Shown here: positions 5,250 through 49,473 of the stretch, in pieces
Position numbering within the stretch: the stretch's first letter is position 1
How the letters are laid out: every line of letters starts with the position of its first letter
Origin: Candidatus Enterousia sp.
GTDB taxonomy: Bacteria > Pseudomonadota > Alphaproteobacteria > Rs-D84
Reading direction: 5' to 3'
Assembly (NCBI GenBank): GCA_045613785.1
Contig: JAZLBQ010000024.1
Location: 1 to 64,000, forward strand
DNA: 64,000 nt
The notes under the pieces: generated by a model
The model's database searches: none
What the model was told of the DNA's origin: nothing
What the model saw: the letters and a program-made list of their open reading frames with translations, nothing else
Position numbers and translations under genes: made by a program

Positions 5250-5648
5250 ATGCAAGAATTTATTTTAAATAATGTCGAAGAAATGCGTGCTTGGGCAGCG
5301 GATTTTGCCAAGACTTTGAGTGTGCCGTCTGTGGTGGCATTACACGGAGATTTGGGTATGGGTAAATCTGAAATTGCACGTGCTGTTATTCAGACCTTGC
5401 GTGGGGCAGAAACTGTTGTGCCAAGCCCAACCTTTACAATCGTGCAGTCGTATGATGGAATTTCTCACTTTGATTTGTATCGTGTTGAAGACGCTGCAGA
5501 ACTGACCGAAATAGGCTTGGGGGACGCAATCGAAAATGATATAACCTTAATCGAGTGGCCAGAAATTGCAGCAGATATGCTGCCAGATAATACAATTCAC
5601 TTGTTTATAACACAAAATGGTGATGGGCGAAAAATTGTTCGTAAATAG
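5250..5648 (+). CDS. tsaE: tRNA threonylcarbamoyladenosine biosynthesis ATPase
   Basis: LHGDLGMGKS, VPSPTFTIVQSY, HFDLYR, LIEWPE. Confidence 0.95.
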   Translation: MQEFILNNVEEMRAWAADFAKTLSVPSVVALHGDLGMGKSEIARAVIQTLRGAETVVPSPTFTIVQSYDGISHFDLYRVEDAAELTEIGLGDAIENDITLIEWPEIAADMLPDNTIHLFITQNGDGRKIVRK

Positions 5649-5649
5649 G

Positions 5650-5740
5650 CTGGGAATATCTGCCTGTGGTTTTGATGCAAGATAATTGTTATTATCAAAG
5701 TGCAGACTTGCATCGAGGCTTTAGCCCGAACCACATCCCT
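5650..5740 (+). ncRNA. Candidate structured RNA, family unknown
   Basis: Nested stems tgtggtt/aaccaca, ttgatgcaag/cttgcatcga, gataat/attatc, ggc/gcc and ggga/tccc, plus a possible pseudoknot tctgc/gcaga. Confidence 0.35.
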
Positions 5741-5760
5741 AAAAAAACGCAGTGTTTGCA

Positions 5761-5790
5761 AAAAAAAACACCGGTTTCCCGGTGTTTTTT
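5761..5790. terminator. Bidirectional intrinsic terminator between tsaE and ftsA-rpe
   Basis: aaaaaaaacaccgg-tttc-ccggtgttttt. Confidence 0.85.
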
Positions 5791-5792
5791 GT

Positions 5793-7562
5793 TTATTTTT
5801 TTAACAGACTTTGCACCGCAAGTGGAAAATCAGGGGATTTTGCAAGATATGACCCAGATACCAATAGGTCTGCACCAGCAGCCCAACATTGTTGTGCTGT
5901 ATCAGGGTTGATGCCACCATCGACAGATATCAGGAATTTCAATCCATACTTTTTACGGGTAGCAGCCAAGACGGCGATTTTGTTTAATGAATCTGGGATA
6001 AAATCTTGAGATGCAGCACCAGGGGCAACAGACATTACCATTACTTCATCAATATCACGTAGTATCGTTTTAAGTAATGTAACAGATGATTCTGGGTGCA
6101 GGGCAATGCCAACACGACGTCCAGAGTTGCGAACGGTCTTGATGGCGTTTCGCAGTCCTGATGTGCCAGTTGATAATATAATTGTATCTGCACCAGCCGC
6201 AATCGCATCAGATGCCCAGACTGCTGGACTTTCTGTCATTAAATGCACGTGCAGGTGGGCGTTTGTGTGTGAACGGATGTTCTTTATCTGTTCGGTATTG
6301 TCGGTTACACGGTCAACATAAAAGCCGTCCATAATGTCAACGTGAATCATTGATATGCCACCTGATTTAAACAGCGTATATGTTTCAGGACGACGCATGT
6401 CAAAGCACAATGTGCTGGGCATAATAGGGATAAATTTATTTGTCTGGCGTGGACGACGTTGGAACAGCCGGGTAAACCAATTCGCACGACGGGCCCAACG
6501 ATCGTGGCGTGCCATATAACGATCACGGCGACCCGTCTGGGAACGCCATACATAATCAGACAAGGCACGGACAGATGCGTCTGTTGGTAAAATTTCTGTG
6601 ACGACTGCAAATGCGTTTTCGATAAATTCACGCAGGCCTTCGACCCCAGCACCGCCACCACTTAGAATAATCTTTGTCGGACGATGTTTTTTAAACGCAT
6701 TGGCACAGTCGTCTTTGATTTTTGCAATTATGTCAACCAATATCGGAATAACAATATCGTTTATATCACTGCGAGAAAACGCATAATCACGGTCTGCCGG
6801 CATAAAGCGGTCTGTTTCTTTTGGAACAACAGAGGCAACAGTGCATTTTATGCGGTCTGCTGTTTCAAAGTCTAGGTTCATTTTTTCTTGGATTGCGGTT
6901 GTTATCGTAGCACCGCCCATTGGTATCTTGGTATGGCAGACAGGACCACGTTTTGTCCAGATAGATGCTGATGTAAATGTTGCACCAAAATCAATAAACA
7001 GTGTTGTCTGATTTTCTGGACGATAGATTTCGTTTTGTAAAAAATGTGGGTCGTAAAAGGTGTCTGGCTGAATATGTGCGTTGTGCAGATGTTCTTGGAT
7101 TTTATTCAGGTCAGAACAATTATAATAAATAATGCCAAATACAGATATCAACTGTCTATCAATGTGGCCAATTGGGGATATCATATTCTTGGAATGAGGG
7201 GAATAATACCGCATTGGTATAATGTGCATCGGAAAATAGCCGTCAGGTGGCGTTATTTTTGATATCTGGTTGCGTATGTCCGATTGGGTTATCTTGTGTT
7301 CCCCAGACCAGGTTTGATTCTGAATAGACGAGTCATATATCGTTTGACCTAAATCACCCGTTATATAGGCAGTGTCAAAATGCGCACCAATTTGCTTTTC
7401 TAGTTCGTCAATTACGGATTTTATTCCAAATACTGTATCGGTGGTGTCAATGCTGAAATAGGCAGAATGATCAATGTTGGCCTTGTGAACACGGTGGGCC
7501 AATCCACGAACACAATGTGTGCCAATGTCTAGGCACAAAAATGACGAATCAAACAGGTTCAT
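5793..7562 (-). CDS. ftsA-rpe: Fusion: cell division protein FtsA (N-terminal ~370 aa) and ribulose-phosphate 3-epimerase Rpe (C-terminal ~215 aa)
   Basis: Actin-fold motifs LDIGT, FIDFGATFT, IPMGG, LSGGGA, directly downstream of ftsQ; Rpe motifs IHVDIMDG, HVHLM, VMSVAPG, SVDGGIN, GADLLVSGS; one uninterrupted 589-aa ORF. Confidence 0.9.
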   Translation of the reverse strand: MNLFDSSFLCLDIGTHCVRGLAHRVHKANIDHSAYFSIDTTDTVFGIKSVIDELEKQIGAHFDTAYITGDLGQTIYDSSIQNQTWSGEHKITQSDIRNQISKITPPDGYFPMHIIPMRYYSPHSKNMISPIGHIDRQLISVFGIIYYNCSDLNKIQEHLHNAHIQPDTFYDPHFLQNEIYRPENQTTLFIDFGATFTSASIWTKRGPVCHTKIPMGGATITTAIQEKMNLDFETADRIKCTVASVVPKETDRFMPADRDYAFSRSDINDIVIPILVDIIAKIKDDCANAFKKHRPTKIILSGGGAGVEGLREFIENAFAVVTEILPTDASVRALSDYVWRSQTGRRDRYMARHDRWARRANWFTRLFQRRPRQTNKFIPIMPSTLCFDMRRPETYTLFKSGGISMIHVDIMDGFYVDRVTDNTEQIKNIRSHTNAHLHVHLMTESPAVWASDAIAAGADTIILSTGTSGLRNAIKTVRNSGRRVGIALHPESSVTLLKTILRDIDEVMVMSVAPGAASQDFIPDSLNKIAVLAATRKKYGLKFLISVDGGINPDTAQQCWAAGADLLVSGSYLAKSPDFPLAVQSLLKK

Positions 7563-7580: not shown

Positions 7581-8261
7581 TTATTTAACAAGAATACGGG
7601 CGTTGTCACGCATGTCGATAACGGATATTTTTCGATCCAAAATCTTGTGTGTCTGGTTCATCGCTATCAGCGTGTTTATTGCAGATATCGCATCGTGTTC
7701 AGGTAATTTTACCGTGATGCCATTAAATGTATGTAAATCCCAGCGACGGTTTTCAATCCATTCAAGGTAATCAAGTTGGCCAATTAAATTTGATGCCGCG
7801 TTCGTTATTTCTGATATGTCGTTCGGAACAGTGCCGTGGAAAACAACGTGGTTTACATCACGGGTGTTGGTCGGTGTGTTCACGATTGTGCCATCTGCCG
7901 ATAAGGGAAAATAGTTTTCACCATCAGACCATAATGCAACCGCAGTGTATAATGACACACGGACAGATAAATTGCCGTTGGCAAGGCGACGAACAGCAGA
8001 TTTTTGAACGCCTGGAACAGATGATATTCGTGTGTTTATGTCTTCAAGATTTACAGAATATGATCGTGTGCCAGGGGCAATCGCAGCCGCACTGACGATG
8101 CCGGATAAATCCTTGGACTTTTGGTCGGCAGAAATCGAAATATTGCGAACACGGGATATATCACAGTGTCCCATTCCAACCATAATAATACGTGTGGCAA
8201 AATATATTGCCAAAATAACGGTAATCACAAAACACAGCCAAAACCAAATAGAACGTTTCAT
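7581..8261 (-). CDS. ftsQ: Cell division protein FtsQ/DivIB
   Basis: N-terminal TM, POTRA-like 'VQKSAVRR', 'NRRWDL', 'VKLPE', 'IDMRD'; upstream of ftsA. Confidence 0.85.
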   Translation of the reverse strand: MKRSIWFWLCFVITVILAIYFATRIIMVGMGHCDISRVRNISISADQKSKDLSGIVSAAAIAPGTRSYSVNLEDINTRISSVPGVQKSAVRRLANGNLSVRVSLYTAVALWSDGENYFPLSADGTIVNTPTNTRDVNHVVFHGTVPNDISEITNAASNLIGQLDYLEWIENRRWDLHTFNGITVKLPEHDAISAINTLIAMNQTHKILDRKISVIDMRDNARILVK

Positions 8262-8300: not shown

Positions 8301-9305
8301 TTATTTTTCAAATTCAGATTTGTTTGGAAAACGCTGTGATAAATATGTCGTATTTTCGATTAAATCTTGGGCTGTGTTATCGCTGGAATCATTTATGCAA
8401 AATATTGCAGCGTGCTTTAATGATGTTTTGTGCCGTGAAACACTGGGGCAAACATAGGAAGAACGTCGAATGTCAAACCAGTGTATTGCATTGTAAATGC
8501 TGTCTAGGATTATGTTGCGACCACTTTTAGGTGGGCGAGCACGGCGAAAGGTTGCGTGGTTGGTGGCAACCTGATTCAATGTAAATAGCCAACGCTGAAA
8601 TTCCCAACTAACACGAAATTTGTTGCGGATTTGTTTGTCGATTGTGGGTTTGATTTTGGGCGAATTATAAAAATCAGACCAGACAGATTTTAGGTATGGG
8701 TCAATACCGTGTGATGGGGCAAAGGAATAAAATTTTTTGCCGTGGATTTCATGAATCTTTTTGGCACTGTTTAATATTGTTGAACGATATGTGTTTGATT
8801 TCTTTAGAATTTTGTCCAGTTTTTTATAGTCTGTTTTGCGATAGACATACAGGTTCTTTGCGTGGCCGTGTCGATCAAAGAAAAATGACGGTGATAATTG
8901 TCTGTTAAAAAATATGTCGTCGTTCATAAGTAGGAATTTTTCTGATAGGCCAGGTATATTTGGTATGCACATTTCTATGCTGTTTGAATTAAAGGTCGGT
9001 AGTGCATCAGCGGGTATGATTTGTTCGTGTGGAACAATTGTAATTTTTGGGTGGTCTGTGTTTAGCCATTTGGGAATCTGACCAAAGCCAGTTATGATAT
9101 AGATGTGATTTATAAATTTAGCGTTTTGGGCAACGCTTCGCAGGGAATAGAGCAGTTCGTCATTATCACGATAGCGTTCGCTTGAAGAAATACCAGTTTC
9201 ACAAGGTGGTGTTTGGAAGAATTTTTGTTCCCATTTTCTTTTTTGGCTTAGCCATTTTTTATCAGAACCGTCAACCCACAGGTAAACAATGTCGATTTTA
9301 TTCAT
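8301..9305 (-). CDS. Stealth-family hexose-1-phosphate transferase (capsule/exopolysaccharide)
   Basis: CR1 'IDIVYLWVDGSD', CR2 'RYRDNDELLYSLRS...PTFNSNSIE...FLLMNDDIF', CR4 'FCIND...RFPNKSEFEK'; start taken at MNKID. Confidence 0.9.
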   Translation of the reverse strand: MNKIDIVYLWVDGSDKKWLSQKRKWEQKFFQTPPCETGISSSERYRDNDELLYSLRSVAQNAKFINHIYIITGFGQIPKWLNTDHPKITIVPHEQIIPADALPTFNSNSIEMCIPNIPGLSEKFLLMNDDIFFNRQLSPSFFFDRHGHAKNLYVYRKTDYKKLDKILKKSNTYRSTILNSAKKIHEIHGKKFYSFAPSHGIDPYLKSVWSDFYNSPKIKPTIDKQIRNKFRVSWEFQRWLFTLNQVATNHATFRRARPPKSGRNIILDSIYNAIHWFDIRRSSYVCPSVSRHKTSLKHAAIFCINDSSDNTAQDLIENTTYLSQRFPNKSEFEK

Positions 9306-9364
9306 TTTTTTCCCTGAACTATAATTCAGTTGAATTATAGTCATAGGAATAGTTTCTGTGCAAC

Positions 9365-19472: not shown

Positions 19473-21791
19473 ATGGCAGGAAATTCAAGATTTTTACCGG
19501 GCAGTGTTGCCGAAGCTTTAAAAAGTTTATTAAATCGTGTCGTTGGGGCTGTGGTCTTGGGCGTGGGACTGTGGGCCATTGTGGCACTGGTGTTTTTTAA
19601 TCCGTATCTGGACGGTTTTGGTGTGGTAAGTGCATACGGGAGTCAATCTGTGATGGGCTGGTGCGTTGGGGCTTTGCGTTATGCAGTCGGTGTGCTGCCG
19701 GGATTGTTCATCTTGTTATGTGTCGCACGCTGGGGGGCGGCAAGGTTGATTGCGTTGGATTGTGGGGCAACGCCTGAGTATAATTTTTTACGTGGCTTTA
19801 TTGCGGTCTGTTTGGGGGCAACTGGGTTAGGTCTGATTTCTAGTTCGTCTGCATTTGGTGGCTTGTTCGGTGCAATTGCAGCAATGGATTTAGGAAAATT
19901 GCTGGGTGGGGCGGCACCTGTGGTTGGTGTTTTTTGTTTGGTGGCTTTTTTCTGGATTGGTGGGGTTATTTTGCATGTTAGATGGAGTCATGTTCGTTCA
20001 GCGTTGCGTTTGTTTGGTCGTTGGTTGCGGTGGATTGGGGCTGCATTTCATCTGCGTCAAGGATATGCAGTTGCACCGGTGCGGTCTGATAATGAATATG
20101 GGACTGTGACAGAAAGTAAAGATGATGATTTAGCGGTTCAGGATTTGCCACAAGAAGTTGTTGAAAAGCCAGAACCTGAAAAAGAACGTCGCAGTTTGTT
20201 GGCTCGCTGTGTTCAGAAAAAAGAAAAAGAAGAAAAGCCAAAGGCTGTGCCTGTGGTGGCGGCGGTTGTGCCACGGCGTATAAATGCATTGTCGGGATAT
20301 CGGTTGCCTGATCCAAAATTGTTGGAAAAATCAGCGACTTCTAAATATTCTGTAACTCCAGAATTGCGGCAGAATGCGTATGCAATGGAAACTCATTTTG
20401 CAGAATATGGTGTTGTTGGCAAGGTGGTCGCAATAAAACCAGGGCCGGTGGTTACGCTGTATGAATTTGAACCTGCACCAGGTTTGCGAATTGTTGATAT
20501 CGAAAAAACAAACAGAGATATGACTCGTGCAATGGCAGTGGAAAAATTCCGTATTGCTCAGTTGCCTAAATCAAACTATCTGGGGGTAGAGGTCGCAAAT
20601 ATTGAACGTCAGATGGTGCGTTATCGTTCGCTGATGGAAGATGATTTGTTTGTGAATTCTAAATATAAAATCCCGTTGGCGTTGGGGGTAAATATCGGTG
20701 GAAACCCAATGTATTTTGATTTGGCAAAAATGCCGCATATGCTGATTGCAGGACGAACTGGATCTGGTAAGTCGGTATTTGTCCAATCTATTATCACGTC
20801 GATTGTTTATCATTTTTCGCCAGATAAGTGCAAGTTGATGATTATTGACCCAAAAGGTGTGGATTTTGTGTTCTGGGATAATATTCCACACTTGATTACG
20901 CCAATCGTAAAGGCAGACCCGCAGGCGGCAATAAATGCGTTAAAGTGGGCTGTGCGTGAAATGGAAGACAGATTTAAGCGGTTGGGGCAGTTGAACGCAC
21001 GTAATATTGAAAGCTATAATGAAATTGTTGCACAAAAACGGGCAAATGGTGAAAAACTAACCAAGCAGGTGCCTGTTGGAACAGACGAAGAAACGGGTGA
21101 ATTGTTGTTTGAAACCCAAGAAGTTGATTTGTCTGATATGCCGTATCTGGTAATTATTATTGACGAGGTTGCAGACTTGATGGCGGTTGCACGCAAGGAT
21201 GTTGAATTGCAAGTGCAGCGTATTGCACAAAAGGCACGTGCCGCTGGTATCCATTTAATTATGGCAACCCAGCGACCAGACGCAACAATTATCACGGGTG
21301 TCATCAAGGCAAACTTCCCGACACGTGTTTCGTTCCAGGCCAGTAGCCGTATTGACAGTATGACTACACTTGGGGCAACCGGGGCAGAGCAGTTGTTAGC
21401 AATGGGGGATATGCTGTTTTCCGAAGGTGGACATCCGGCTGTTCGCTTGCACGGTGCATACATAAGCGACGAAGAATTGACCAGAATTGGGGATCATTGG
21501 CGTGCCCAGGGCGAGCCAGAATATGTTGATGGGGTAACTGCGTCTGATGATGGTGGTATCCCAGGAATGCCAGGTGCAATCCCAGGTGGTGGACGTGCAA
21601 AAGGTGGCGACGATCTGTATGAACAGGCAAAAGAAATAGTTTTACGTGATAAAAAACCGACTGTTTCATATATTCAGCGACGTTTGGGTATTGGCTATAA
21701 CAAGGCCGCAAGTTTGATTGAACGTATGGAAGAAGAAGGGGTTGTGTCAGCACCTGATGCGAATAACAAGCGTCAAATCCTGGTAAATTAA
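19473..21791 (+). CDS. ftsK: DNA translocase FtsK
   Basis: N-terminal TMs, PGPVVT.YE, MPHMLIAGRTGSGKS, IIDEVADL, ATQRP, gamma domain 'IQRRLGIGYNKAA'. Confidence 0.97.
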   Translation: MAGNSRFLPGSVAEALKSLLNRVVGAVVLGVGLWAIVALVFFNPYLDGFGVVSAYGSQSVMGWCVGALRYAVGVLPGLFILLCVARWGAARLIALDCGATPEYNFLRGFIAVCLGATGLGLISSSSAFGGLFGAIAAMDLGKLLGGAAPVVGVFCLVAFFWIGGVILHVRWSHVRSALRLFGRWLRWIGAAFHLRQGYAVAPVRSDNEYGTVTESKDDDLAVQDLPQEVVEKPEPEKERRSLLARCVQKKEKEEKPKAVPVVAAVVPRRINALSGYRLPDPKLLEKSATSKYSVTPELRQNAYAMETHFAEYGVVGKVVAIKPGPVVTLYEFEPAPGLRIVDIEKTNRDMTRAMAVEKFRIAQLPKSNYLGVEVANIERQMVRYRSLMEDDLFVNSKYKIPLALGVNIGGNPMYFDLAKMPHMLIAGRTGSGKSVFVQSIITSIVYHFSPDKCKLMIIDPKGVDFVFWDNIPHLITPIVKADPQAAINALKWAVREMEDRFKRLGQLNARNIESYNEIVAQKRANGEKLTKQVPVGTDEETGELLFETQEVDLSDMPYLVIIIDEVADLMAVARKDVELQVQRIAQKARAAGIHLIMATQRPDATIITGVIKANFPTRVSFQASSRIDSMTTLGATGAEQLLAMGDMLFSEGGHPAVRLHGAYISDEELTRIGDHWRAQGEPEYVDGVTASDDGGIPGMPGAIPGGGRAKGGDDLYEQAKEIVLRDKKPTVSYIQRRLGIGYNKAASLIERMEEEGVVSAPDANNKRQILVN

Positions 21792-47842: not shown

Positions 47843-49473
47843 TGTTCGAAATCGGTAAGGATATTTTTAGACACGGGGTTTCAGGTGCAAAAAGTGATGC
47901 TACTGCACGTAGCAGATTGTGGATTATGCACTTGGCTTTCTTGGTTATGTTCGCAGGTTTTATTGGGCGGACTTTGCAGTTGGGGATTCAGGGAACAGAC
48001 AGAACAAGATTGGCTGGCTCAGACGGAGAGTGGGCTGTTCAACGTGCAGATATTGTTGATAGAAATGGTGATATCTTGGCAAAAAATGTTGAGTCTGGAC
48101 ATATTATTTTGCGTAATAGAGCCGTGCGTGAAAAAGATAGAGATGCAGTCGCACAAACAATTCATCAGGCATTGCCATACGAGTATTCTTTGGCAGAAGC
48201 AATAGAGTTGGTAAATTCAGATAAACGATTCGTTCGATTGAAAAAATATGCCAGTGATAGCCAACGTGAAATTATTAAAAAAGCACGATTGGAAGGTTTG
48301 GAAGTCGAACGTATTCAGACTAGAAAATATCCAAAAAGAAGACTGTTTTCACATGTGGTCGGATTTGTCGGTGCTGATGGTAATGGACTGGAAGGGGCAG
48401 AGAGAGTTTATAATGACTATTTAAAGGAAAACAAAGACCCTTTGCGGTTGAGCTTGGATTCAAGAATTCAGGCTGTGTTCTATGACCAGTTGTCGTTCGC
48501 AATGCAAAAATATCAGACTAAGGCCGCTATGGGAATGCTGATGAATGCACGAACTGGCGAAATGATTGCTATGGTGTCTTTGCCAGACTATGATCCAGAA
48601 AACTTGTCTGCAGACCCTGTTGCAAATCGTTTGTTCAAACCAATGCGTAGTGTTTATGAAATGGGCTCTATTTTCAAAATATTCAATACTGCAATGGCGT
48701 TGGAAAATGGTATCGATAAGGAATATTATATTAAAGAACCTTTCAAGGTTTTAGATAAATTTGGACGGGTCGCAGCCAGAATTAGCGATGTGCGTAGTTT
48801 TAAACCGCCACGGCCATATTTGACAGTCGAAGAAATTATGGTGCATTCGTGTAATGCAGGAAGTGCACAAATCGCATTGGATTTACCAGATGGAACACAA
48901 AAAGAATTTTTTGAACGTCTGAATATGGACAAGGCATTGAGCTTGGAATTTGGACGCACTGAAAATTCTATCCCACAACGTAAATGGGGGCAGGTTGAAC
49001 GGGCAACTGTGTCTTTTGGACATGGGTATGCAGTAACACCAATGCATTTGATGTTGGCTGTAAATGCAGTTACAAATGGGGGGATTTATATCTATCCAAC
49101 GTTGCAAAAAAGAAGTGTTGGGGTTGTGCGTGGTGAACGTGTGTTGGCAGATGAAATTTCTGCAAAGTTGCGACCAATTATGTTGCGAGTCGCCGAAGAA
49201 ACTAGTGGTAAACAGGCCAGAGTTGCAGGTATTCAAATCGGTGGAAAAACAGCAACTGCTGAAAAAATTATCAATGGAAAAATTGATAGAAAGAAAAATA
49301 TTACGGCTTTTGTGGGAATCTTCCCAGTAAACGCACCACAATATACTATTTTAGTTGTGCTGGACGAACCACAGGGAACAAAAGAATCTTGGGGGTGGCG
49401 AACTGCAGCCTGGAACGCCGTGCCAACAACGGGAAAAATTCTTGATAGTATCCTGCCATTGCTATTTGAATAA
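47842..49473 (+). CDS. ftsI: Class B penicillin-binding protein (FtsI/PBP3)
   Basis: RADIVDRNG, R.YP, GLEGAE, SxxK (GSIFK), SxN (SCN), KTA in place of KTG. Confidence 0.92.
   Translation: MFEIGKDIFRHGVSGAKSDATARSRLWIMHLAFLVMFAGFIGRTLQLGIQGTDRTRLAGSDGEWAVQRADIVDRNGDILAKNVESGHIILRNRAVREKDRDAVAQTIHQALPYEYSLAEAIELVNSDKRFVRLKKYASDSQREIIKKARLEGLEVERIQTRKYPKRRLFSHVVGFVGADGNGLEGAERVYNDYLKENKDPLRLSLDSRIQAVFYDQLSFAMQKYQTKAAMGMLMNARTGEMIAMVSLPDYDPENLSADPVANRLFKPMRSVYEMGSIFKIFNTAMALENGIDKEYYIKEPFKVLDKFGRVAARISDVRSFKPPRPYLTVEEIMVHSCNAGSAQIALDLPDGTQKEFFERLNMDKALSLEFGRTENSIPQRKWGQVERATVSFGHGYAVTPMHLMLAVNAVTNGGIYIYPTLQKRSVGVVRGERVLADEISAKLRPIMLRVAEETSGKQARVAGIQIGGKTATAEKIINGKIDRKKNITAFVGIFPVNAPQYTILVVLDEPQGTKESWGWRTAAWNAVPTTGKILDSILPLLFE

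Follow-up and report, generated by a model that had tools for sequence, protein, structure and literature searches.

FtsA joined in frame to ribulose-5-phosphate 3-epimerase throughout a gut-associated alphaproteobacterial family in which no FtsZ was found

Introduction

FtsZ is, to our knowledge, close to universal in walled bacteria. Described exceptions include the Chlamydiae, the Planctomycetes, some mollicutes, and extremely reduced endosymbionts (PMC4164004, PMC10591338), and two of the closest cases, Chlamydia and Wolbachia supergroup J, are tabulated without ftsA as well as without ftsZ (PMC10591338, Table 2). Here, we describe a gene of Candidatus Enterousia sp., located in a 64,000-nucleotide (nt) window of contig JAZLBQ010000024.1 (the window being the whole stretch of DNA analysed), in which the division protein FtsA continues in frame into ribulose-5-phosphate 3-epimerase (Rpe), and which is conserved across a bacterial family in which no FtsZ was found. 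This family, Rs-D84, resembles the Chlamydiae and Wolbachia supergroup J, as they are tabulated, in having reduced genomes and no FtsZ together with retained MreB, FtsK, FtsQ, and peptidoglycan synthases (PMC10591338), and by analogy the shared gene set suggests septation driven by MreB or by the late divisome. Unlike Chlamydia and Wolbachia supergroup J, tabulated without ftsA, the family keeps FtsA as well as ZapA; it is also gut-associated, with genomes of about 0.9–1.0 Mb and no known intracellular lifestyle. Retention of FtsA without FtsZ is unusual among the cases tabulated in PMC10591338.

Candidatus Enterousia (GTDB order and family Rs-D84) is described in the main text of its genome paper as a group of uncultured gut bacteria with genomes of about 0.75–1.0 Mb (PMC12306168). 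That text (mSphere 2025), its supplements aside, makes no mention of FtsZ, FtsA, or "cell division". A literature search returned no paper joining FtsA, ribulose-phosphate 3-epimerase, and fusion, and none treating Rs-D84 or Enterousia together with FtsZ. What is new here is therefore the combination of known parts, namely FtsA, Rpe, and FtsZ-less division, for which no published description was found.

Structure and Integrity of the Fused Gene

The host assembly (G000; 1,044,118 bp in 26 contigs, 96.5% complete) carries the fused gene 18 nt downstream of ftsQ and 3 nt before a hairpin terminator (Table 1). The initial annotation, made from the letters alone, had read a single 589-amino-acid (aa) open reading frame (ORF) after ftsQ, composed of FtsA, a retained amphipathic basic helix, and a catalytically intact Rpe, and followed by a terminator. 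Each of these elements was confirmed: the ORF call gave one frame with an ATG start, FtsQ domains were found upstream, the order of the parts agreed with the Pfam matches, the structural model, and the invariant residues, and the hairpin lies just past the stop codon. The AlphaFold2 model, built on 39 family members, has a mean predicted local distance difference test (pLDDT) score of 91.1 and a predicted template modelling (pTM) score of 0.60, and in it a long helix (residues 343–367) and a disordered, low-confidence basic stretch (residues 368–375) connect two globular domains. The position behind ftsQ is constant, as ftsQ adjoins the gene upstream on the same strand in all 94 loci in which both genes were detected (93 of the family and one outgroup).

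Table 1. Features of the fused locus in the window, and the ftsA and rpe genes of sister families
Feature	Position	Strand	Details and evidence
Fused ftsA-rpe gene	5793..7562	-	One ATG-start ORF, 589 aa; both Pfam domains, AlphaFold2 model, Foldseek matches
FtsA-like actin-fold domain, residues ~1-340	6543..7562	-	Profile alignment, conserved motifs, collinearity with sister-family FtsA
Linker, residues 341-379	6426..6542	-	Amphipathic helix and polybasic run; AlphaFold2, alignment to outgroup FtsA C-terminal helix
Ribulose-5-phosphate 3-epimerase domain, residues 380-589 and stop codon	5793..6425	-	PF00834, NF004076
ftsQ	7581..8261	-	226 aa, directly upstream of fused gene; POTRA_1 and FtsQ_DivIB_C domains
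Bidirectional hairpin terminator between fused gene and tsaE	5763..5790	.	12-bp stem, flanking A and T runs
tsaE	5250..5648	+	Convergent to fused gene; TsaE Pfam match
Stealth-family protein gene	8301..9344	-	CR1, CR2, CR4; capsule/exopolysaccharide phosphotransferase type; directly upstream of ftsQ
ORF, 824 aa	722..3196	-	Weak N-terminal AsmA match, 15.3 bits, below cut-off
FtsK gene	~20634..21278	+	796-aa frame
Transpeptidase-domain penicillin-binding protein gene	48535..49383	+	551-aa frame
ftsA and rpe of G025 (family f2)			ftsA 420 aa, preceded by ftsQ; rpe 235 aa; overlap 17 nt
ftsA and rpe of G029 (family f6)			ftsA 426 aa; rpe 195 aa; 1 nt shared
ftsA and rpe of G028 (family f5)			ftsA 402 aa; rpe 215 aa; overlap 22 nt
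ftsA and rpe of G038 (family f3)			ftsA 417 aa, preceded by ftsQ; rpe ~2 kb downstream; 460-aa ORF between

The junction was checked in contigs assembled from three DNA runs, each of a different study, and from one RNA library. Single contigs span it in runs X5 (5700–6732) and X8 (5964–6569), two overlapping contigs cover it in run X6, and in the metatranscriptomic library X20 a 387-nt contig (6263–6649) crosses it with one mismatch and no gap. Neither a stop nor a frameshift appeared at the junction, and no indel was listed inside 5793–7562 for the contigs of these four runs, the listed indels lying only in the intergenic terminator region (5730–5765); the fusion thus stands.

Distribution of the Fusion

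The best 120 protein homologues are all 587–598 aa long, carry both Pfam domains, and share 67–81% identity at 99–100% coverage; among them, the four entries with a public name are called only "ribulose-phosphate 3-epimerase". With one genome taken per species, 298 loci encode a relative. The best 80 of these are 58–96% identical; they were sampled from the guts of ruminants, horses, chickens, and humans, and their record titles read Candidatus Enterousia, Alphaproteobacteria bacterium, or uncultured Rickettsiales. A closed, long-read chromosome of 958,618 bp is among the fusion-bearing genomes. In a scan of 41 relatives, the Rpe match lay within a 591–612-aa open frame in the host assembly and in 23 of 24 genomes of the same genus, and 10 genomes from five other families of the order gave 11 Rpe matches in frames of 199–259 aa. 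A wider scan covered 251 genomes of the order at 85% completeness or more, 230 of them from the family Rs-D84, and found an Rpe match in 227 of the 230. Frames of 588–634 aa prevail in the family among the matches listed (150 of 255), the exceptions being a few additional stand-alone copies and two short frames (G248, G232) that lie near a contig start. All 14 genera of the family other than Enterousia have ORFs of 564–623 aa, so that 15 of 15 sampled genera are fused; close and distant family members alike bear the fusion, and the sister families have separate ftsA and rpe genes.

Among the best 150 matches in the representative library (1.84 billion proteins), no FtsA-Rpe fusion of independent origin was found. 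Only 19 representatives of 542–623 aa (30–52% identity), together with fragments, match both halves there, and below them stand-alone Rpe proteins follow. The fused architecture therefore looks like a single invention of the family Rs-D84.

The FtsA Half

The Pfam FtsA model (PF14450) matches residues 189–320 with 41 bits (cut-off 31.8). In the family profile, residues 5–337 align to residues 7–370 of the FtsA structure 7q6f (E = 5.3e-24), while PilM and MreB are matched only by the C-terminal half of the FtsA part. When the N-terminal domain of the model was compared with the PDB by Foldseek, the top structures were those of FtsA (3wt0, 1e4g, 7q6f, 4a2a), with target-normalised template modelling (TM) scores of 0.66–0.74 over 350–390 columns; together with the profile match, this identifies the fold as one of actin/HSP70 type that has the topology of FtsA, its 1C subdomain included. 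In the 39 sequences compared, which represent 15 genera, G193, G302, and G304 never vary, and conservation is at least 90% at D12, G14, and D191; we take these positions to correspond to the phosphate 1, phosphate 2, and adenosine motifs of actin-fold ATPases, so that the nucleotide-binding motifs of an FtsA are present. In a joint alignment, the whole part is collinear with the FtsAs of outgroups.

The fused protein therefore shares with canonical FtsA (Escherichia coli, Thermotoga maritima, Staphylococcus aureus, and Vibrio; PDB 7q6d, 1e4g, 3wqu, and 7q6f, Foldseek chains of 352–388 residues) the actin-like fold, the nucleotide-binding motifs, an amphipathic helix after the fold, and a gene directly after ftsQ. 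Unlike canonical FtsA, its helix is internal and is followed by a 210-aa enzyme, and the FtsZ partner that it would bind appears to be missing. It also falls far below the cut-off of the ftsA equivalog model TIGR01174, scoring 68 bits over residues 39–321 against a cut-off of 175.85, whereas the FtsAs of sister families reach 251.7, 242.8, 162.1, and 127.6 bits on the same model. The actin fold is about 60–80 residues shorter than the sister-family FtsAs (402–426 aa including their tails). A shortening of subdomain 2B by about 10 residues was considered as a lost FtsZ-binding surface and rejected, as a similar gap occurs in the FtsA of the FtsZ-bearing family f6 and two deep FtsZ-less genera have no such gap.

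Ratios of nonsynonymous to synonymous substitution rates (dN/dS) were estimated by the Nei-Gojobori method in 59 locus pairs with dS below 1.2, and the median for the FtsA part was 0.059. Judged by its sequence, the FtsA half is no decaying remnant. Its strong divergence fits a change of partners and equally leaves room for a repurposed domain.

The Linker

The initial annotation had pointed to an amphipathic basic segment between the two domains, and this segment, RWARRANWFTRLFQRR, is indeed present at residues 354–369, in the predicted helix 343–367, after which the basic stretch follows. In the joint alignment, the linker lines up with the C-terminal amphipathic helix of outgroup FtsAs. Its length is 29–48 residues and its net charge +2 to +13 (median +10) in all 39 sequences, and its best 14-residue hydrophobic moment lies at a median of the 98th percentile of the windows of the same protein, with a minimum at the 85th; in one genus (L110), the linker consists mainly of the polybasic part. 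Mean pairwise identity is 42% for the linker, 65% for FtsA, and 78% for Rpe, and the median dN/dS of the linker is 0.133. The linker is thus poorly conserved in sequence and constant in character, as expected of a membrane-targeting helix selected for its physical properties. It is most likely the former C-terminal membrane-targeting helix of FtsA, and most likely it continues to anchor the protein to the membrane's inner face.

The Rpe Half

The Rpe half is matched by Pfam Ribul_P_3_epim (PF00834) over residues 382–573 with 146.6 bits (cut-off 21.1) and by the NCBIfam rpe subfamily NF004076 with 174.4 bits (cut-off 165). Foldseek placed Rpe structures first for the C-terminal domain, led by Streptococcus pyogenes Rpe (2fli), with a target-normalised TM score of 0.92; the two TIM barrels superpose at a root-mean-square deviation of 1.3 Å with 33% identity, and the profile alignment to 2fli (E = 5.8e-64) likewise indicates a (beta/alpha)8 barrel. 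All 39 family members compared, from the 15 genera, have the same residues at H407, D409, D412, G413, H440, L441, M442, P514, G515, D548, and G550. Among them are H407, D409, H440, and D548, which we take from Rpe structures to be the metal-binding and catalytic residues, and their presence agrees with the initial annotation, which had counted all of these residues as kept. Unlike stand-alone Rpe, the domain is fused at its N-terminus to FtsA through a predicted membrane-binding linker. The usual Rpe loop is of the PGFGGQ type, and in the fused protein it reads PGAASQ.

The fused gene is the sole Rpe match in the host assembly, which also encodes transketolase, and for most Rs-D84 genomes the non-oxidative pentose phosphate steps are described as present except for transaldolase in the main text of PMC12306168. 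The median dN/dS of the Rpe part is 0.047. Very probably, the Rpe half is a working enzyme.

A separate Rpe product translated from an internal start was considered and appears unlikely: no Shine-Dalgarno-like purine run occurs in the 20 nt before the Met381 codon, and this methionine is missing in 4 of 14 other genera (L106, L107, L109, L110). Six genomes of the same genus (G043, G090, G109, G115, G138, G190) have one or two extra stand-alone Rpe copies in frames of 217–228 aa, and among the matches listed the fused frame is also present in G090 and G190. The extra copies may stem from transfer, duplication, or contamination of the bins.

Searches for FtsZ and Its Regulators

In the host assembly, no match to PF12327 or PF00091 was found, the controls matching in 13 of 14 reference genomes. 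A tblastn search with four FtsZ proteins of relatives returned nothing at E ≤ 1e-3, and a hidden Markov model (HMM) made from six FtsZ proteins of the order, run with filters off against 12,545 six-frame ORFs, gave a best E-value of 0.29. The closed chromosome of the family gave no FtsZ match, and a tubulin-family match was found in none of the 230 family genomes (15 genera, all at least 85% complete). In genomes of other families of the order, FtsZ was found in 17 of 20 (f2, 2 of 3; f3, 13 of 14; f4, 0 of 1; f5, 1 of 1; f6, 1 of 1), and the sister-family proteins score 120–173 bits in genomes of similar size and GC content.

MipZ is a regulator of FtsZ. Full-length MipZ (261–308 bits) was found in 6 of 6 genomes of f3 and 3 of 4 of f2, and in 6 of these 9 genomes it lies a few kb from ftsZ (for example, G038:C4:23907–24686, with ftsZ at C4:29804–30286). 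None was found in f5 or f6, and among the host assembly and 24 genomes of the same genus full-length MipZ occurs in 0 of 25, with partial ParA-like matches only. MinD gave no match over the cut-off in 41 genomes; the order therefore appears to be without a Min system, which says nothing about the loss of FtsZ. A comparison of gene order for the site of an ftsZ deletion gave no single place, as the ftsZ neighbours of four relatives map to scattered contigs of the host assembly. One genome of f4 (G027, 93% complete) has no FtsZ, Rpe, or MipZ match and no match at the level of FtsA (the best being MreB-like), and it may represent a second, more complete loss of the module.

The Remaining Division Machinery

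The host assembly keeps two SEDS proteins, four transpeptidase-domain penicillin-binding proteins (PBPs), two of them beside SEDS genes, as well as FtsK, FtsQ, and MreB. The gene set is thus that of MreB- or late-divisome-based division without FtsZ, with MreB, SEDS/PBP pairs, FtsK, and FtsQ kept and no FtsZ found. FtsK and one of the PBPs are encoded within the window (Table 1). ZapA is a protein known for binding FtsZ; it (PF05164, over the cut-off) is kept in the host assembly (C7:60700–60957) and in 23 of 24 genomes of the same genus, and it is also present in the FtsZ-negative G027. The second PF14450 match of the host assembly is MreB (C26:87677–89057; L004 7678–9057), in a 459-aa open frame. 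An N-terminal extension of MreB as in Chlamydia was considered and set aside, as other family genomes have MreB frames of 349–382 aa and the ~100 additional residues resemble non-coding sequence that happens to be open in frame; translation probably begins at the methionine just before the MreB domain.

Origin of the Fusion

In the sister families of the order Rs-D84, the orthologous genes ftsQ, ftsA, and rpe share this order and lie on one strand. The FtsAs of these families terminate in a short amphipathic helix, which aligns with the linker. Unlike the fused family, they have two genes with overlapping stop and start codons, an FtsZ in the genome, and a MipZ in f3 and in most of f2. Since ftsA and rpe were already adjacent there, overlapping stop-on-start (Table 1), a small change sufficed to fuse them. 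In the simplest history that these arrangements suggest, the fusion arose once, when the ftsA stop codon was lost within its overlap with the start of the neighbouring rpe.

The absence of ftsZ from its usual place after ftsA, which the initial annotation had remarked upon, is real, but the place had already been abandoned in the sister families. In G025, G029, G028, and G038, ftsZ is either about 20 kb distant or on a different contig, and, since it is remote in all four, its usual position was given up before the fusion. The fusion and the lack of FtsZ both map to the whole family and, on present sequences, would count as one event in which either may have come first, with or without a causal link. 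As to a rationale for the fusion, the initial annotation had offered two: a by-product of genome compaction fits an origin by adjacency, whereas metabolic coupling to division is neither supported nor contradicted.

Proposed Function and Alternative Explanations

With moderate confidence, we favour an FtsA-Rpe that is bifunctional, tethered to the membrane, and active in a divisome independent of FtsZ, and we infer from the observations above its membrane binding, its enzyme activity, and its role in division. The N-terminal part would be a diverged but selected FtsA, predicted to bind ATP, and the internal helix with its polybasic run would anchor the protein at the inner face of the membrane. 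The C-terminal Rpe would be the only epimerase of the cell, feeding xylulose-5-phosphate to the retained transketolase. With no FtsZ found in the family, the FtsA moiety would presumably no longer tether a Z-ring. It probably keeps a role independent of FtsZ: bound to the membrane on its cytoplasmic side, it would scaffold or activate the late divisome (FtsQ, FtsK, FtsW/FtsI) and the septal peptidoglycan synthases, with MreB as a possible organising polymer by analogy with Chlamydia. In E. coli, FtsA is described as interacting with FtsN and activating FtsW (PMC10591338). The fusion itself would most simply be neutral, an accident that befell two overlapping genes while the genome shrank and that was locked in since both halves are needed. 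The initial annotation spoke of an enzyme tethered to the divisome; given 0 of 230 family genomes with FtsZ, this must mean an FtsZ-less divisome, and the tethering itself we infer.

Several observations weigh against this explanation. The FtsA half is strongly diverged, as its 68 bits indicate, and may have changed its function. On the Rpe side, the equivalog model TIGR01163 scores 156.4 bits, below its cut-off of 212.6. The contig of library X20 attests presence in an RNA library and is not proof of transcription. FtsL and FtsB were not confidently found in the host assembly with Pfam models (FtsL gave no match, its control matching only E. coli, and the search for FtsB gave a DivIC match of 19.9 bits in a 367-aa frame), so that an intact FtsQLB module is not established. 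The retention of ZapA sits oddly with a complete loss of FtsZ and is the main reason for leaving a small share of probability to an undetected FtsZ.

The foremost alternative, which we regard as unlikely, is that the FtsA moiety was repurposed after the loss of FtsZ, no longer takes part in division, and now serves as a membrane-anchoring, oligomerising, or regulatory module for Rpe or for another process. The marked divergence of the FtsA part (68 bits against 128–252 in sister families) and the lack of any FtsZ partner found would agree with this, and FtsA kept without FtsZ has no precedent in Table 2 of PMC10591338. However, the gene stands directly after ftsQ in 94 of 94 loci, the FtsA-specific fold and ATP motifs are kept at a dN/dS of 0.06, the late divisome genes on which FtsA is known to act remain, and it is not evident why a soluble TIM-barrel enzyme should have to be anchored at the membrane.

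Rpe enzymes are homo-oligomers, and the epimerase could therefore be structural as well as catalytic, its oligomeric barrels cross-linking membrane-bound FtsA into a self-organising scaffold that would partly replace FtsZ and might be tuned by the level of pentose phosphates. FtsA-Rpe would then be the organising element of an FtsZ-free divisome, recruiting FtsQ, FtsK, and FtsW-FtsI to the cross-linked scaffold; we consider both the structural role and this organising role improbable. What speaks for them is co-occurrence: the fusion and the lack of an FtsZ match coincide in all 15 genera of the family and in no sister family, the fused architecture was met only in this clade among the best 150 library matches, and the genomes G090 and G190, which have an extra stand-alone Rpe, still carry the fused frame (among the matches listed). 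However, this co-occurrence amounts to one evolutionary event and is no evidence of a causal link, and gene adjacency explains the fusion without a selective story. Still far less probable is an FtsZ that is present but was missed, being extremely divergent, located on an unassembled element, or lost in binning, in which case FtsA would be conventional. In its favour are the retained ZapA and the fact that most of the genomes are metagenome-assembled; against this stand the 230 negative genomes, many of them 95–100% complete in 1–10 contigs, the closed circular chromosome that is likewise without a match, the unfiltered clade-specific HMM, the clear scores in sister families of similar genome size and GC content, and the lack of full-length MipZ in the 25 family genomes checked. 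An artefact of assembly or sequencing, a stop codon lost in one strain only, or a pseudogene is hardly conceivable, as independent contigs from four runs cross the junction, hundreds of independent assemblies carry the fusion, including the closed long-read genome, and both halves are under purifying selection.

Neighbouring Features of the Window

The gene upstream of ftsQ encodes a Stealth-family protein (Table 1) and is no member of the cell-wall cluster. The 824-aa ORF with the weak AsmA match may encode a diverged protein of lipid transport to the outer membrane. Each 2-kb bin of positions 1–64000 shows positive GC skew, and the cumulative skew rises throughout, which indicates that the whole window lies on one replichore; the fused gene is encoded opposite the G-rich strand.

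Significance

Where public records name the fused proteins, they do so only as epimerases, and automated surveys would thus score the family as being without FtsA. A widespread family of Alphaproteobacteria from animal and human guts has its FtsA under strong selection and welded to an essential sugar-phosphate enzyme, with no FtsZ found, and it probably divides in an unusual way. FtsA-Rpe offers an example of a moonlighting-type fusion at the divisome, and if the Rpe barrels did form a scaffold, a metabolic enzyme would be a structural part of the division machine and possibly a sensor linking division to the supply of pentose phosphates. The family is a natural test case for the function of FtsA without FtsZ, which has otherwise been approached only through mutants.

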